From: a virus
Lineage: Duplodnaviria; Caudoviricetes
DNA length: 64,000 nucleotides
Strand: one strand, 5' to 3'
IMG/VR virus record: IMGVR_UViG_3300028833_000073
Coordinates: 94,306 to 158,305 of that record
Shown here: in pieces, positions 4,955 through 59,854 of the stretch
How positions within the stretch are numbered: the stretch's first letter is position 1
Layout of the letters: every line of letters starts with the position of its first letter
The notes under the pieces: generated by a model
What the model was told of the DNA's origin: nothing
The model's database searches: none
The model's input: the letters and a program-made list of their open reading frames with translations, nothing else
Made by a program: the position numbers and the translations under genes

Positions 4955-5136
4955 ACAAACAATCTCCTACCAATACGGTAGGAGATTTATTTGCTAAGTT
5001 ATTATGTGAGAATTATATGAAAGGAGGTAATGCACATGAAAAACCATATGCGTAATGTGAGATAATGTTAGTTACGCAAACAAGTGTAACCGAAGTGTAC
5101 CCAAAGGAAAAGCTGAATTGCCCACAAGCTTACCTT
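4955..5136 (-). ncRNA. Putative sRNA, ACACUUGUUUGCGU-hairpin family (long form with anti-SD/AUG segment)
   Basis: Minus-strand AACA-aaataa-TA at 5147-5136; core 14-mer at 5074-5087; ends at hairpin 4961-4987. Confidence 0.6.
4961..4987. terminator. Bidirectional intrinsic terminator hairpin
   Basis: AATCTCCTACC-aatac-GGTAGGAGATT with T-rich tails on both strands. Confidence 0.75.
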
Positions 5137-5170
5137 ATTATTTTGTTATGACCAAAAAAATATATAGACA

Positions 5171-5198
5171 CATATTATATATGTGGTGGTATTGGGTA
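5171..5198 (+). promoter_or_regulatory. Early promoter plus conserved 16-nt leader GTGGTGGTATTGGGTA (copy 1 of 5)
   Basis: CATATTAT-atat-GTGGTGGTATTGGGTA; same leader at 33785-33770(-), 39201, 40471, 42251. Confidence 0.8.
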
Positions 5199-5226
5199 AA
5201 ATTCTAATAGAAAGGAAGGAATAACA

Positions 5227-10793: not shown

Positions 10794-11333
10794 ATGATCT
10801 TAGTAATGAATAGTGAATTCTTCATTCAGAATATAAAGAATGATATGAAGATTATGGATAATTCATTTGTTCTTAGCTGGGATTCTCAGTTAACTCCAGA
10901 GGCAGCAGGATGTCCTATTTGGAGTAGTAGGCATCTTGTTCCTCCAGAGGGAATTAGTAATGACTATGATTATACTAATTACTTATACTTCAATGATAAG
11001 GCTATGGAGTTAATAGCTATCATTGGGTATATGATTAAGACGAATAACATAGTTATCATTCTCTCTAATGGTAATTATGCTGAAGACTTCCTATACATGT
11101 TCTTGAAGTTTATCCAGAACAGATATGGAATAGTGTATAGAGATGTGAAGTGTCTTGAAGATATTCCTGAAGTTCCAGGAGATACAGATAGCTTTAGCAT
11201 TCAAGGACTCTATAACTTCAATGCCTATGACAATAATAGAGTTGTTAGGTATATAGAGTCACTTAAGATATCTGATCCTGACTTTAGGATGTTCTTTGAA
11301 CAGAATCTGAATGAGAAAGCAGCAGAGCTATGA
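10794..11333 (+). CDS. Hypothetical protein
   Basis: GAGGTG RBS, operonic. Confidence 0.75.
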   Translation: MILVMNSEFFIQNIKNDMKIMDNSFVLSWDSQLTPEAAGCPIWSSRHLVPPEGISNDYDYTNYLYFNDKAMELIAIIGYMIKTNNIVIILSNGNYAEDFLYMFLKFIQNRYGIVYRDVKCLEDIPEVPGDTDSFSIQGLYNFNAYDNNRVVRYIESLKISDPDFRMFFEQNLNEKAAEL

Positions 11334-12121
11334 AGCTATATGAGAAGGTGAATTATACTCAAGATATAGCGCTCTTAAAGAATGCTAATATCTACGAGTA
11401 TGATATTGCTAAGGCTAATATATCTGTCCTCTTAAATAGGGGACAGATATCATCTTCTCTATATGACTTTCTTTTTAATCAAGACAATATGGTTAGAAAG
11501 ATCATGGTAGGTAATATGGAGAAGACTAATAAGAATCTTATTAAAGAGAAACAACAAGGTATCATTGATGCTAAGAAGTATCTCTTTGAAGCTAATCATA
11601 TAGATGATAACGAAGTTCTCTCGATAAAGAATGATGCTGTATTCGTTACAAGGGAACTAGATAAACTTGAGTATGGTAATGCTAGATTCACACTAAGGAA
11701 TAGATATAATCTCTTTATTAGAATCCTAAGATTACAATTCTTCTATCTTCTAGATCAAGTGAATGATATAGAGGTATTAGATATAAAGGGTATAAGAGAT
11801 GAGGTTATAGAGAAGCAAGAGGAGTATATGATTGACTTCATTAAGACTCTATTGTTTACCTTTAAGACAGAAGGATCTGATAAGACATTGCTCTTATTAA
11901 GAACATTCAATCATAATTATATGAATAAGAAGTTAGATATCAACTACTATAGGGACTTATACACAGGTAAGTTCCCATTGAATACAGATAGTGTAGTCTT
12001 TTCATATAATGCAGATGCTCTTAGTCAAGACCTTGTAGATTCTGTCGATATAGTAAACAATGGATCATTCCTTAGAGCTATATCGAAAGTATTCTATACT
12101 GAGTATCTTAGGCAGAAATGA
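11330..12121 (+). CDS. Small family-B DNA polymerase palm-like protein
   Basis: IYEYDIAKANISVL resembles motif A; LSIKNDAVF resembles motif C; only 263 aa. Confidence 0.5.
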   Translation: MKLYEKVNYTQDIALLKNANIYEYDIAKANISVLLNRGQISSSLYDFLFNQDNMVRKIMVGNMEKTNKNLIKEKQQGIIDAKKYLFEANHIDDNEVLSIKNDAVFVTRELDKLEYGNARFTLRNRYNLFIRILRLQFFYLLDQVNDIEVLDIKGIRDEVIEKQEEYMIDFIKTLLFTFKTEGSDKTLLLLRTFNHNYMNKKLDINYYRDLYTGKFPLNTDSVVFSYNADALSQDLVDSVDIVNNGSFLRAISKVFYTEYLRQK

Positions 12122-12122
12122 G

Positions 12123-12154
12123 TCCTCACCATAACGGTGAGGATTTTATTTTTT
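12123..12154 (+). terminator. Intrinsic terminator
   Basis: TCCTCACC-ataac-GGTGAGGA plus T-tract. Confidence 0.8.
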
Positions 12155-12156
12155 GC

Positions 12157-12258
12157 ACTAAATACCTCCCATCCGAAGATGGGAATAGTATCTAGCTCAA
12201 CGCAAACAAGTGTTGATTACTTTAGAAAGGATCGCTTACAGAAAAATACGTGCTGGCT
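12157..12258 (-). ncRNA. Putative sRNA, hairpin family, array unit 1
   Basis: AACA-taaaag-TA at 12269-12258; core 12200-12213; C(UUCG)G-capped 3' hairpin. Confidence 0.65.
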
Positions 12259-12284
12259 ACTTTTATGTTAGTACTATATCAAAG

Positions 12285-12383
12285 ACTAAATACCTCCCAT
12301 CCGAAGATGGGAGTAGTATCTAGCTCAACGCAAACAAGTGTTGATTACTTGAACATATTCCTGCCGAAAAAAATTCTTTGCAT
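12285..12383 (-). ncRNA. Putative sRNA, hairpin family, array unit 2
   Basis: AACA-taaaaa-TA at 12394-12383; core 12328-12341; C(UUCG)G-capped 3' hairpin. Confidence 0.65.
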
Positions 12384-12409
12384 ATTTTTATGTTAGCACT
12401 ATATTAAAG

Positions 12410-12513
12410 ACTAAATATCTCCCATCCAAAGATGGGAGTATATCTAGTTCTAACGCAAACAAGTGTTAGATGAACGAACCAAAGTTATGATTTCTCACCC
12501 ATGAGTAATCCCC
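12410..12513 (-). ncRNA. Putative sRNA, hairpin family, array unit 3
   Basis: AACA-atataa-TG at 12524-12513; core 12453-12466 with changed but paired stem; C(UUUG)G-capped 3' hairpin. Confidence 0.65.
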
Positions 12514-12526
12514 ATTATATTGTTAT

Positions 12527-12637
12527 AAAGAAATTAAAAGTTACAGGACCTCCATCCTGCAACTTTTAATTTTTGGTGTATCAGCAATGACTAAAATAAC
12601 CACAGAGAAGAACTATCATTTTCTGCTCTATAGCTAT
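12527..12637 (-). ncRNA. Putative ~110-nt sRNA without the family core
   Basis: AACA-ctatag-TA at 12648-12637; long hairpin at 12531-12572. Confidence 0.4.
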
Positions 12638-12646
12638 ACTATAGTG

Positions 12647-13138
12647 TTACCAATCTGTATCTATATCAACTTCTTTTTCTTTTTTAGCCTTTGGTTTAAA
12701 GTCCTTATGAGTAACATTCTTCTCTGAGTTAAAGTTGGCTACATATACAGTTACTAAGTAGAAGATCTTCTCTGCTAGTAATTCAGTAAAGTACTCTTCT
12801 GAATAGCATAGATATATCTTCTTCTTAAGGGTAGTTGATAGTCTATTTGATACAATATTGGTTATATCCTTACGAATAGTATCTTCTCTTTCTTTATTGA
12901 TGAAATCAAGTCCTGTATCAGGAACTATATTATACATCACATAGTCATTAAGACAGTCATCAAGAAACTCATTTATGAAATTATTCACATCTTCCTTTGA
13001 GTCTTTATATCTAAAATCAGATATAGCTCTAAACTCATCGGTCTTTGTTGCACTATCTAGAACGTCTATATATCTCTTAAGTAGATACAATGCAACTATA
13101 GCTAGAATTACATAGATATATTCAAGCAACTTACTCAC
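12647..13138 (-). CDS. Membrane-anchored hypothetical protein
   Basis: N-terminal hydrophobic helix YIYVILAIVALYLL. Confidence 0.75.
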   Translation of the reverse strand: MSKLLEYIYVILAIVALYLLKRYIDVLDSATKTDEFRAISDFRYKDSKEDVNNFINEFLDDCLNDYVMYNIVPDTGLDFINKEREDTIRKDITNIVSNRLSTTLKKKIYLCYSEEYFTELLAEKIFYLVTVYVANFNSEKNVTHKDFKPKAKKEKEVDIDTDW

Positions 13139-13338
13139 CCCTTAATGGAGAGTAAATGTTCTTTTGCATTTTCATAATCACCATCGAATCGAGATAGAGC
13201 AGCTTTACAAGCATCTAGATCAACACCAGTCTCTTCATTTAACTGTAGAGCTAGTACAGGATCAGCCTGTTTAGCATTAGCTCTTCCATAAGCAGCCTTT
13301 AAATTCTCTGCTTGTTGTCTTTTGAAGTCTTCAAACAC
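13135..13338 (-). CDS. Stand-alone EF-Ts N-terminal (UBA-like) domain protein
   Basis: LQLNEETGVDLDACKAALSRFDGDYENAKEHL matches the EF-Ts pattern VKELRExTGAGMMDCKKALxExxGDxExAxExL; AAAGGAG RBS. Confidence 0.7.
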   Translation of the reverse strand: MFEDFKRQQAENLKAAYGRANAKQADPVLALQLNEETGVDLDACKAALSRFDGDYENAKEHLLSIKG

Positions 13339-31976: not shown

Positions 31977-32248
31977 CATGTTTGTTCACGTAAGATGGTT
32001 AAACTTACGCCGTCTTAATGTAAAGACTGCTATATGTCACCATATAGATCAGACTATATCACATACTCATATGAGTATCTTAGTATTTCGAGTCACCAAT
32101 TGACCCTACGTCTTTCGACTAGTCGTTGAACCTTCACATCCTTTCTAGGATTAGCTCGGCTGCTGATTGTCTTATCATATGATAAGAGTTTCCAGCAATT
32201 AACTAAGTTTTTCCATATAGAGTCACCTCTATAGGCCCCGCGCAGTTC
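31977..32248 (-). mobile_element. Group I intron (272 nt, ORF-less) inserted in NRNP|TL
   Basis: P1 CCCU/GGGG; P AAUUGCUGGAAA, Q AAUCAGCAG, R GUUCAACGACUA, S GAUAUAGUCU; terminal G at 31977. Confidence 0.92.
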
Positions 32249-33700
32249 AGGGTTACGATTAATTATGAATGGGATCCCGTTTTCGTTTGCTTTGATAATG
32301 TAGTTAACGATCTTCCATACACGATCATCATAATCCGTATAGGCTTTATCAAAGACTGCTTTAGCAGTATGCATAGCCATACCATAAGTATTATGGAGGA
32401 TATTGATAATCGCATGTTCAAGAAGCTTAACCAATGCCTTAAACGGCAACTTGATCTGATCAGTTCTAAGAGTCCAGTTAGGTACAATAACAGCTCTGCA
32501 ACTGAAATTATACCGGCCACCATACAGTGACCTAATAATACCTTTCTTAGAACTCATGATCTTGATTACTTCATCATAAATCTCCATGAGATTAAACTGA
32601 AGATCATAGAGTAATTGATTGCGGGTCTTCTTAGACCTGCGTCCTTTTATTGATTCTTTATGATTGATGATAGCTCCGAGCATAGCCATGATATTAAAGT
32701 ACTTATTCGTATCCTGGAATGCAAACTTATCACCATTAAGATGATATGGACGCAAGAGAGTAGTAAACACAGGAATACTATGAGTGAATACTTTTTCTCT
32801 ATCGTGCATGATATCATCATATACATCTTTCTTATTTGGATTCATCTTAAGATAATAGTCCATGATCTCATCGAAGTTCTCATAGAACCCCAACATTCCA
32901 TAATCATAGTACTTATCTAAATCTCCTCTTTCTACTTGGATAGAAAATCCATTCTCATCCTTTTCATCCTTTGGATCAAGAATACCTGTGAGTGCTGCCT
33001 TACCAATAAAGAACTCAATAGACTTATACAATCCTGGATGTATCACATAGTCATCATCCAGAATAATCCATCCAGTAATCTTGAAATCATCATTCTTCTT
33101 CACTACCTTCTTACCACAGATAGGACAGATAGTTCCTTCATTCTGTTGGTTCTTAGTAGCTCCACACGGACAAGTATATCTAGTTCCATAAGAACTAGCA
33201 TCATCAAATGTAGGACCAAACAAAGGAGAATAGATTGAGTTAGGTTCTTTGATATCCTTCTTAACTCCTTGAGGTTTCTCGATACGGATTCCTTTACCTT
33301 TACCAAAGTCTTCCATCCGTTCTTCATCAAGATTGATTCTTTCAATCCATGTTCTATATTCATATTTATTACTGTGAGGATACGATGAGTCTTTATCATC
33401 CACTGGAATGGGAGCTTTAGCTACTATTGCTTTTACTACTTCATATGGATTTGCAAGAGATTCTGCTAATCCAGTTCTAAGAAGATTATTAACTTCTTCT
33501 TTCCTTTTATTGAAGTTGCTTATTCCCCTCCATTTATCCTCAACTTTGAAATTCTTATAGTTGGATCCTTCAGTGGGAACAACCATAGAAAAGTGTCTTT
33601 CCTTTGGATAGTCCTTTAGCATTGATTCTCTTTGCTCTCCATGGAAATACTCTATTTTGCTTCCAACTGTAGGTACCACCTTAGAAAACTTCTTTTCCAT
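32249..33700 (-). CDS. RNAP beta' N-terminal subunit, exon 1 (spliced product 605 aa; probably non-virion RNAP)
   Basis: CPCG...CPICG zinc finger, KKGIIRSLYGGRYNFSCRAVIVP, INRNP; early promoter. Confidence 0.92.
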
Positions 33701-59526: not shown

Positions 59527-59659
59527 CGTAGAGGTAGGGGTAATATAGCTTGATATTCGCCACTAGTAGTCTGATTTGCATTCGATTCAAAGACTACTGA
59601 TAATTAGAGAAGATGGTTGGTGGCCATCTTCCTTTTTATCACTTTTGTAACACTTTAGT

Positions 59660-59815
59660 AAGAGAATGCGAATTCATTCTCCTTCTTCTGGACTTAGGTA
59701 CACTTGTTTGCGTGCCTAGCTAATTTTGGGATTTTTTCATTGTTGATCTTCCTTTCTTAACATTATAATCAATTACCTCTTCCTTATACCCTACCGTAAG
59801 GTAGGGTATCTTTTT
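59660..59815 (+). ncRNA. Putative sRNA, ACACUUGUUUGCGU-hairpin family (long form with anti-SD/AUG segment)
   Basis: AACA-ctttag-TA at 59649-59660; 5' hairpin GAGAAUG..CAUUCUC; core 59700-59713; terminator 59786-59815. Confidence 0.65.
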
Positions 59816-59854
59816 CTAATTCTATCGAAACTTGATGATATGGGGTGATACATA

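Follow-up and report, generated by a model that had tools for sequence, protein, structure and literature searches.

A tandem array of predicted late small-RNA genes with an invariant hairpin loop in an AR9-like jumbo phage of the ruminant gut

The window analysed here, 64,000 nucleotides long, comprises bases 94306-158305 of a 158,305-bp IMG/VR virus record (IMGVR_UViG_3300028833_000073; estimated to be 64% complete), and at its positions 12157-12524 the minus strand carries three tandem units, each composed of a late-type promoter, a 5′ segment, a core hairpin and a terminator-like hairpin. We propose that these units are late small-RNA genes of one sibling family, whose invariant hairpin loop may bind a common partner. 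The array lies between two convergent genes, one on the plus strand (11330-12121) and one on the minus strand (12647-13138), each with its own terminator: a two-way terminator at 12120-12146 ends the former and bounds the array, and a minus-strand terminator hairpin at 12531-12570 separates the latter from it. One of the flanking proteins is a membrane protein and the other is similar by eye to the N-terminal part of elongation factor Ts; RNA binding is obvious for neither of the two. The protein encoded beside the array has ~25-32% identity to hypothetical proteins of Bacillus phages AR9, PBS1 and BpSp, of Staphylococcus jumbo phages and of Yersinia phage phiR1-37. The window also codes for split RNA polymerase beta-like subunits, topoisomerase II and dCMP deaminase, and the public sequencing runs that contain the stretch come from sheep, goat and other gut metagenomes of ten studies. 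From these protein matches, encoded genes and metagenome runs we infer that the phage is an uncultured, distant relative of the AR9/PBS1 group of jumbo phages, some members of which carry uracil-DNA, and that it inhabits the ruminant gut.

Tandem Repeats Finder detects a 125-nt period with 2.5 copies at 12157-12467, and the promoters, cores and hairpins located in each unit bear out the three minus-strand units given in a preliminary description of this DNA. In unit 3, the promoter (AACAATATAATG, 12513-12524; predicted start site G at 12513), which is 100% conserved in the close strain L137, is followed by a non-conserved 5′ segment (12471-12512), a core hairpin with the stem UCUAAC/GUUAGA and the loop ACUUGUUUGC (12449-12470), and a long terminator-like hairpin with a G+C core at 12419-12438 and a short U tail (12403-12448). 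Unit 2 consists of the promoter AACATAAAAATA (12383-12394; predicted start site A at 12383), a 5′ segment (12345-12382), a core hairpin with the stem UCAAC/GUUGA (12325-12344) and a terminator-like hairpin (12278-12324; core 12294-12313). Unit 1 has the same order of parts: the promoter AACATAAAAGTA (12258-12269; predicted start site A at 12258), a 5′ segment (12217-12257), a core hairpin with the same stem as unit 2 (12197-12216) and a terminator-like hairpin (12152-12196; core 12166-12185). The 5′ segments are 38-43 nt long. The core sequence ACACTTGTTTGCGT lies at 12200-12213, 12328-12341 and 12453-12466, and we count five exact copies of it in the whole window, the number given before; its loop is closed by a C-G pair. 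The second-hairpin sequence CCCATCTTYGGATGGGAG recurs at 12166-12183, 12294-12311 and 12419-12436, with a chance expectation of 0.03. This second hairpin had been described as followed by a U-rich tail; the hairpin is present, but its stem is longer (~16-17 bp with a bulge) and leaves only a short U tail (UCUUU). A terminator scan of the array region (900 nt) finds six terminator-like sites compared with 0.2 in shuffled sequences, and it calls the second hairpin of every unit on the minus strand.

The late promoter of AR9 is AACA-(6N)-TA/G, transcription starting at its final base, whereas its early promoter is AAATATATATTAT-(6N)-G (PMC5312081). The AACA-N6-TA motif had been taken as the AR9 late promoter, which agrees with the published form, and all three array promoters fit it, with TA in units 1 and 2 and TG in unit 3. 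AACA-N6-TA occurs only 99 times on both strands of the 158 kb, and in 13 of the 15 late-type units of the window phage and its relatives an exact AACA-N6-T(A/G) precedes the hairpin by 35-54 nt; a terminator-like hairpin closes every unit, in the array and in relatives. Elsewhere in the genome, AAACATAGAGATAA-type motifs precede three consecutive genes that have no early-promoter motif. We consider the assignment of the array units to late promoters sound as far as the sequence can tell, and the evidence supports reading the units as self-contained cassettes, predicted to run from promoter to terminator on the minus strand. An early motif, GAYATATTATA, also recurs strongly in the upstream regions of the genome, and ATATGTGGTGGTATTGGGTA often comes after it. 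In seven genes this early promoter precedes a near-identical 20-nt leader, ATATGTGGTGGTATTGGGTA, at 5165-5200 (plus strand) and six other loci, among them those upstream of 33700, 39243, 40564 and 42310. Terminators are likewise stereotyped genome-wide, many having the form GGTACC-loop-GGTACC or CCTACC-GTAA-GGTAGG, as in the regions at 917-1330 and 54716.

The core hairpin is not confined to the array. We found 17 intact copies and one decaying copy in the window phage and its relatives from ruminant-gut metagenomes, and the 158 kb contain the 12-mer CACTTGTTTGCG six times, always flanked by a different self-complementary sequence. The window itself holds two single-copy members: S5074, a predicted RNA of ~180 nt on the minus strand (4955-5147; promoter AACAAAATAATA at 5147-5136, core hairpin at 5070-5091, an unpaired ACCUCCUUUC and a terminator), and S59700, a predicted RNA of ~155 nt on the plus strand (59649-59817; promoter AACACTTTAGTA at 59649-59660, core hairpin at 59694-59719 and a terminator). 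Further copies lie in the IMG/VR contig G001 (two), in contig L128 (eight) and in L164 (one, with a variant loop). In an alignment of 16 copies, 15 of them distinct, pairing at the five inner positions of the stem is nearly complete and draws on all four types of Watson-Crick pair. Covariation scores 0.865 compared with 0.186 in shuffled alignments, none of 500 shuffles reaches this value, and the score is at most 0.20 when the stem partners are slid by 1-3 columns, which substantiates the earlier remark that the stem changes in sequence and keeps its pairing. Given that eight cells of the core stems hold G-U or U-G pairs, which on the opposite strand would be A-C mismatches, the folded strand is the one with ACUUGUUUGC. 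The minus strand, which had been deduced from a UUCG loop in the second hairpin, is thereby upheld, but the UUCG loop is itself weak evidence, being unconserved (unit 3 has UUUG, and a 96%-identical strain has UUCU). For the single-copy RNAs, whose folds have z-scores between -3.5 and -6.4, the minimum-energy and the centroid structure both contain the hairpin. Its orientation tracks the local promoter and not the direction of replication or of the genes. The core hairpin is a real structured module.

Constancy across this family is limited to the 12-nt core. The 12-mer is identical in 15 of the 17 intact copies; the loop variants are ACUAGUUUGC in unit c of L128 (U>A) and ACUUGCUUGC in L164 (U>C), the latter retaining the YUUG-YUUG pattern. 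Only CACUUGUUUGCG is shared, and the stems differ in nearly every copy. A search of the array against Rfam 15, with membership defined as a score at or above the gathering threshold of a family, returned nothing at E values up to 10, CRISPR-repeat families included, and the same search of the whole window, G001 and an island of predicted non-coding RNAs returned only a tRNA and a group I intron. When the covariance model R1, derived from the known copies, was run over 258 kb of related DNA, it detected none beyond them; a search of this kind had been proposed in the preliminary description, and no Rfam family matches the hairpin. AR9, BpSp and SA1 have no copy of the loop motif within one mismatch. 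A 14-mer scan of IMG/VR gave mostly chance matches, with real hairpins only in G001, and the 25 loci retrieved by two-core pattern scans of IMG/VR and of JGI metagenomes are unrelated tandem repeats without stems, mostly on contigs of higher G+C content.

Relatives of the phage were found through the 263-residue protein encoded next to the array, and their contigs were then compared at the same junction; single-protein searches of IMG/VR with this protein and with the topoisomerase found no close relatives. L128, whose neighbor protein is 86% identical, has seven units in ~950 nt at the junction, each composed of a AAACATATAAGTAG-type promoter, an unrelated 5′ segment of 35-54 nt, a core hairpin whose stem is new, and a terminator. 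The terminators of these seven units differ, one type being common to three of them, and we therefore read the "constant two-hairpin scaffold" reported earlier as a product of recent duplication only. L137 and L138 (96.5% identical in nucleotides and 99% in protein) have two units and lack unit 2; in their homolog of unit 1 the promoter AACA is changed to AACC and the closing G of the hairpin to A, and this unit is probably decaying. Contigs that span the array in four other runs, drawn from four studies, are short by exactly one 125-nt period, and no contig covers the part unique to unit 2; some assembly collapse is conceivable here, yet L137 and L138 agree. The more distant L129 (68%) and L131 (58%) have one late-promoter unit without the core hairpin, L130 and L135 have none, and in AR9, BpSp and SA1 the corresponding junction is only ~40 nt long. 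Because the number of units differs among relatives at the same place, the junction is a site of gain and loss of predicted late small-RNA genes.

The position of the array exactly between two convergent genes, the visible decay of one unit in other strains and the ~40-nt junctions of AR9, BpSp and SA1 would also fit cassettes that act only in cis as insulators of convergent genes, or that are decaying remnants with no action in trans. We regard this as improbable, since the loop is identical in 15 of 17 copies despite complete turnover of stems and flanks and across phages with only 69-82% coding identity, which implies strong selection on the loop, and since single copies stand at non-convergent sites. 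An element acting at the DNA level, in which a hairpin in single-stranded dU-containing DNA would serve replication priming, recombination or transposition and the promoters and terminators would be incidental, is very unlikely in our judgment. The copies are intergenic and often at convergent junctions, G-U pairs could form in dU-DNA as well, and strain L137, whose flanking genes have 96% nucleotide identity, carries an IS605-type TnpB with OrfB_IS605 and Cas12f1-like TNB domains ~10 kb from its array (L137:1-584). However, in 13 of 15 units the late-promoter motif keeps a fixed distance of 35-54 nt on the loop strand, all units have a downstream terminator, the orientation follows the local promoter, and transposon ends and palindromic repeats conserve the stem and not the loop. 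The variable stems and fixed loop are unlike IS200/IS605 ends or REP elements, and TnpB is absent from the window genome (G000), TnpA and RAYT not having been searched for.

By analogy, the closest known kind of system is a multicopy sibling small-RNA family such as LhrC1-5 of Listeria, of which lhrC1-4 lie in tandem. Like the LhrC genes, the array consists of homologous head-to-tail genes of ~100 nt, each with its own predicted promoter and terminator, and has a short invariant motif in an accessible loop between diverged flanks. It differs in being encoded by a phage, in its predicted promoters for a non-canonical phage polymerase, in its motif, which is one U/G-rich loop of 10 nt in contrast to the C-rich UCCC loops of LhrC (PMC5880928), and in its copy number, which varies from 2 to 7 among close strains. 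The late units of AR9/PBS1 use the same AACA-(6N)-TA/G motif and likewise start at its final base (PMC5312081), whereas AR9, BpSp and SA1 have neither the loop motif nor an array at the equivalent junction. With CRISPR mini-arrays, RNA anti-CRISPRs and viral crRNA-like RNAs (PMC10651486; bioRxiv 10.1101/2024.10.29.618823) the array shares phage-borne hairpins that alternate with unique segments, but here invariance is confined to 12 nt and does not extend to the stems, a separate promoter and terminator-like hairpin belong to every unit, and no cas genes were found in the 158 kb. The array sequence contains no near-identical repeats of 24-48 nt and no single leader promoter; the earlier statement that this is not a CRISPR array holds. 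ToxI repeats are identical 36-nt units transcribed from one promoter and cut by the adjacent ToxN nuclease. The array resembles them as a tandem non-coding RNA repeat in mobile DNA, but its units are 125 nt long and non-identical, and the flanking proteins have no ToxN/AbiQ-type domain. Judged by these features, the array lacks what defines CRISPR arrays, RNA anti-CRISPRs, ToxI and transposon ends.

A fixed loop repeated on variable stems, as in CsrB/RsmX-Z, iron-responsive elements and lambda boxB, is the signature of one common binding partner. The array hairpin has this arrangement; unlike those elements, it lacks a GGA, CAGUGN or GNRA-like motif and occurs once per RNA. We posit that the array comprises three paralogous, independently transcribed late small-RNA genes of ~105-110 nt, whose RNAs would be made by the non-virion RNA polymerase of the phage, would act in trans and would belong to a lineage-specific sibling family of AR9-like jumbo phages of the ruminant gut. 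The sole shared functional element would be a modular hairpin at a helix tip, with a free-to-vary stem of at least 5 bp, a C-G closing pair and the loop ACUUGYUUGC with its two YUUG motifs. This loop would offer a fixed sequence to one common partner, most likely an RNA-binding protein that is recruited or titrated, or alternatively a conserved RNA that pairs with the loop. A protein seems somewhat more likely because all ten loop bases are fixed and no complementary RNA site was found. The 5′ segments would be an unconstrained leader and not programmable specificity elements, and tandem duplication and loss at the convergent junction may tune dosage (2, 3 or 7 units). To the reading as a whole, that of late sibling small RNAs whose loop binds a common partner and whose array sets dosage, we assign a probability of about 0.55, and the existence of a new family of phage non-coding RNA is a well-supported prediction. 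Pairing of the loop with helix 24 of 16S rRNA (GCAAACAGG) was considered and dropped; by a rough estimate, several 9-bp sites that permit G-U pairs are expected in rRNA by chance. The discovery of a partner would yield a new phage RNA-binding regulator or a new counter-defence decoy, and the family provides a ready covariance model for annotating ruminant-gut jumbo phages.

Several observations weigh against this proposal. In the minimum-energy folds of units 1 and 3 the core hairpin is displaced by other pairings, among them a lengthened terminator stem into which part of its 3′ arm is drawn, and modeled on its own the core hairpin is weak. No complement of the loop of at least 8 nt is conserved in phage mRNAs between the window phage and L128, and no CsrA, Hfq or cold-shock-domain protein was found in the 216 kb of phage DNA searched. 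A role of the hairpin as single-stranded DNA is possible, the phage DNA being probably dU-containing. Finally, paralogs within arrays are 80-87% identical in their 3′ parts and 31-58% in their 5′ segments (shuffled baseline: mean 31, maximum 53), with 48% for the 5′ segments of units 1 and 2 compared with 84% for their 3′ parts. Simple drift after duplication does not predict this contrast, which requires either that the 3′ parts underwent gene conversion or that the 5′ parts were actively diversified or replaced.

The dissimilar 5′ segments of paralogs with similar 3′ parts are the reason why we retain, at low probability, the idea that the array is a programmable guide or antisense system, in which the hairpin would be an effector handle and the 5′ segments would target different host or rival-phage sequences. 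Array units always keep a 5′ segment of 35-54 nt before the hairpin, and the array content has turned over fully between two phages with an 86%-identical neighbor protein. The conservation pattern, however, is that of spacer. Between the window and L137, coding flanks are 96.1-96.5% identical and non-coding spacer 85-89%; in unit 3 the promoter is 100%, the scaffold 96.2% and the 5′ segment 88.4% identical, and the 5′ segment of unit 1 is 89.7% identical. From these small counts, the 5′ segments behave like neutral spacer between strains. In S5074, compared between the window and L128, the hairpin is 91% and the terminator 92% identical and the 5′ segment 39%, which is the random level, at 69-82% identity of coding genes. 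In the L164 ortholog of S59700 the hairpin begins ~17 nt past the promoter, and the 5′ segment is only ~11 nt long. Nor did any target appear: the 5′ segments pair with 132 translation start regions no better than shuffled sequences do (z between -1.3 and +0.5), the phage's own genome gave only chance matches of 10-12 nt in short-word BLAST, with no complementary site in the 158 kb, and blastn of both arrays against 50,697 phage records, along the lines of the target search suggested earlier, gave only chance-level matches with E values of 1 or more. Cas1, Cas12/TnpB TNB and Piwi domains were not found in the 158 kb of this 64%-complete genome. We thus do not find support for a guide-RNA reading, and the interchangeable specificity segments of the preliminary description are quite unlikely to be guides. 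A Cas-independent, phage-borne programmable RNA system whose 5′ segments are diversified or swapped against fast-evolving host or rival-phage targets is, as a specific version of this idea, very improbable; if true, it would explain both the unrelated 5′ segments of paralogs and the complete turnover of the array between close phages.

An invariant loop with all else free to vary, dosage amplified by an array and rapid gain and loss of units are also what a decoy against an RNA-targeting host defence might show, with late copies of a hairpin that mimics a CRISPR repeat, an antitoxin RNA, or a tRNA or rRNA loop soaking up a host factor, and phage RNA anti-CRISPRs offer a precedent (PMC10651486). 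We nonetheless consider this unlikely. A repeat mimic should keep its stem too, whereas the stems here vary from copy to copy with few exceptions; the hairpin matches none of the CRISPR-repeat families in Rfam; a 10-nt loop is unlike an anticodon loop in shape; and late expression would be odd timing for counter-defence. Another possibility is a decoy of the phage's own late polymerase, similar to 6S RNA, in which the UUGU/UGUUU of the loop would mimic the template promoter element and bind the sigma-like subunit for feedback. The AR9 non-virion polymerase is established to read 3′-UUGU-5′ on a dU-containing template strand (PMC9209446). The loop contains UUGU, the 5′ segments are enriched in UUUGUU (present in 5 of 15 units compared with 0.24 expected), and the family RNAs are themselves predicted late transcripts. 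Nevertheless, little weight attaches to a match of 4 nt within a loop rich in U, DNA is what the polymerase reads and its binding of RNA is postulated, the UA element expected 6 nt away is absent from the hairpin, and the loop positions outside UUGU are equally invariant, such that this idea is highly improbable.

Returning to the sibling small-RNA reading, the hairpin stands at helix tips in otherwise unrelated RNAs: the three array RNAs, S5074, S59700, the two RNAs of G001 and a 255-nt RNA behind an early promoter, whose fold has a z-score of -6.35. This pattern fits an add-on module serving as a recognition handle or shared interaction loop. G001 (IMG/VR 3300028833_000179) has only promoter-region DNA in common with the window genome and may be a missing part of it. 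The longer single-copy members have features of their own. S5074 is antisense to both of its flanking genes, its ACCUCCUUUC is complementary to the ribosome-binding site, and an island in its 3′ half (ACCUCCUUU) is kept between the window and L128. Its orthologs in L131 and L130 keep a promoter-like AACT-N6-TA, a CUCCUUU motif and the terminator and lack the hairpin; because these distant orthologs are without it, the S5074-type small RNA predates the hairpin, which was added in one lineage. The CUCCUUU motif, which is complementary to the ribosome-binding site and which we take to be identical to the 3′ tail of 16S rRNA, is kept across phages with only 58-86% protein identity, including those without the hairpin, and GAAAGG and GGAGG are the most enriched upstream words in the genome. 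The CUCCUUU-bearing small RNA is a candidate translational repressor. This small RNA lies upstream of and antisense to an RNase H gene (window 4955-5147, minus strand; L131:4040-4240; L130:1460-1660), with the unpaired (A)CCUCCUUU / CUCCUUU kept. S59700, upstream of an SbcD-like gene, has two G-U pairs in its hairpin and a C/U-rich unpaired stretch that pairs with start regions better than shuffled sequences do (z = -3.2). It is plausible that an unpaired stretch complementary to ribosome-binding sites would be the regulatory part of the longer single-copy members; the array units have no clear equivalent. Mini-open reading frames with strong ribosome-binding sites opposite S5074 and S59700 were rejected as genes, as L128 does not retain the start codon, whereas ACCUCCUUU is kept on the RNA strand.

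Predicted RNA genes also cluster beyond the hairpin family. Directly behind the large RNA polymerase gene, upstream of the window, lies an "RNA island" poor in open reading frames (L124:505-1406, equal to G000:C1:85304-86205). It holds the 255-nt RNA and three late-promoter units (AACATATTAGTA, TACATTATAGTA and AACATAAAAATA) with G+C-richer, strongly folding RNAs predicted to be 145-242 nt long, and it has no Rfam match. The 158 kb contain at least eight predicted late-promoter RNA genes without open reading frames. What occupies the intergenic "RNA slots" seems to depend on the lineage: upstream of the SbcD-like gene, a 63% relative (L165:1-246) has not the hairpin RNA but another structured RNA, which is G+C-rich and is preceded by TACATATTTATA. 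Non-coding RNA thus appears to be abundant in the AR9-like lineage; the paper on AR9 transcription profiling, when searched by terms, showed no mention of non-coding or small RNAs (PMC5312081), and a literature search surfaced no small-RNA family described for AR9-like jumbo phages.

Two other features of the window stand apart from the array. A 67-residue protein encoded on the minus strand at 13135-13338, whose C-terminal half (TGVDLDACKAALSRFDGDYENAKEHL) resembles by eye the UBA-like N-terminal domain of elongation factor Ts, has no match in PHROG, Pfam not having been searched. A group I intron (Rfam RF00028; 73 bits, E = 2e-16) lies on the minus strand at 32030-32258 and seems to be within or next to the RNA polymerase beta-like gene at 32093-33700.

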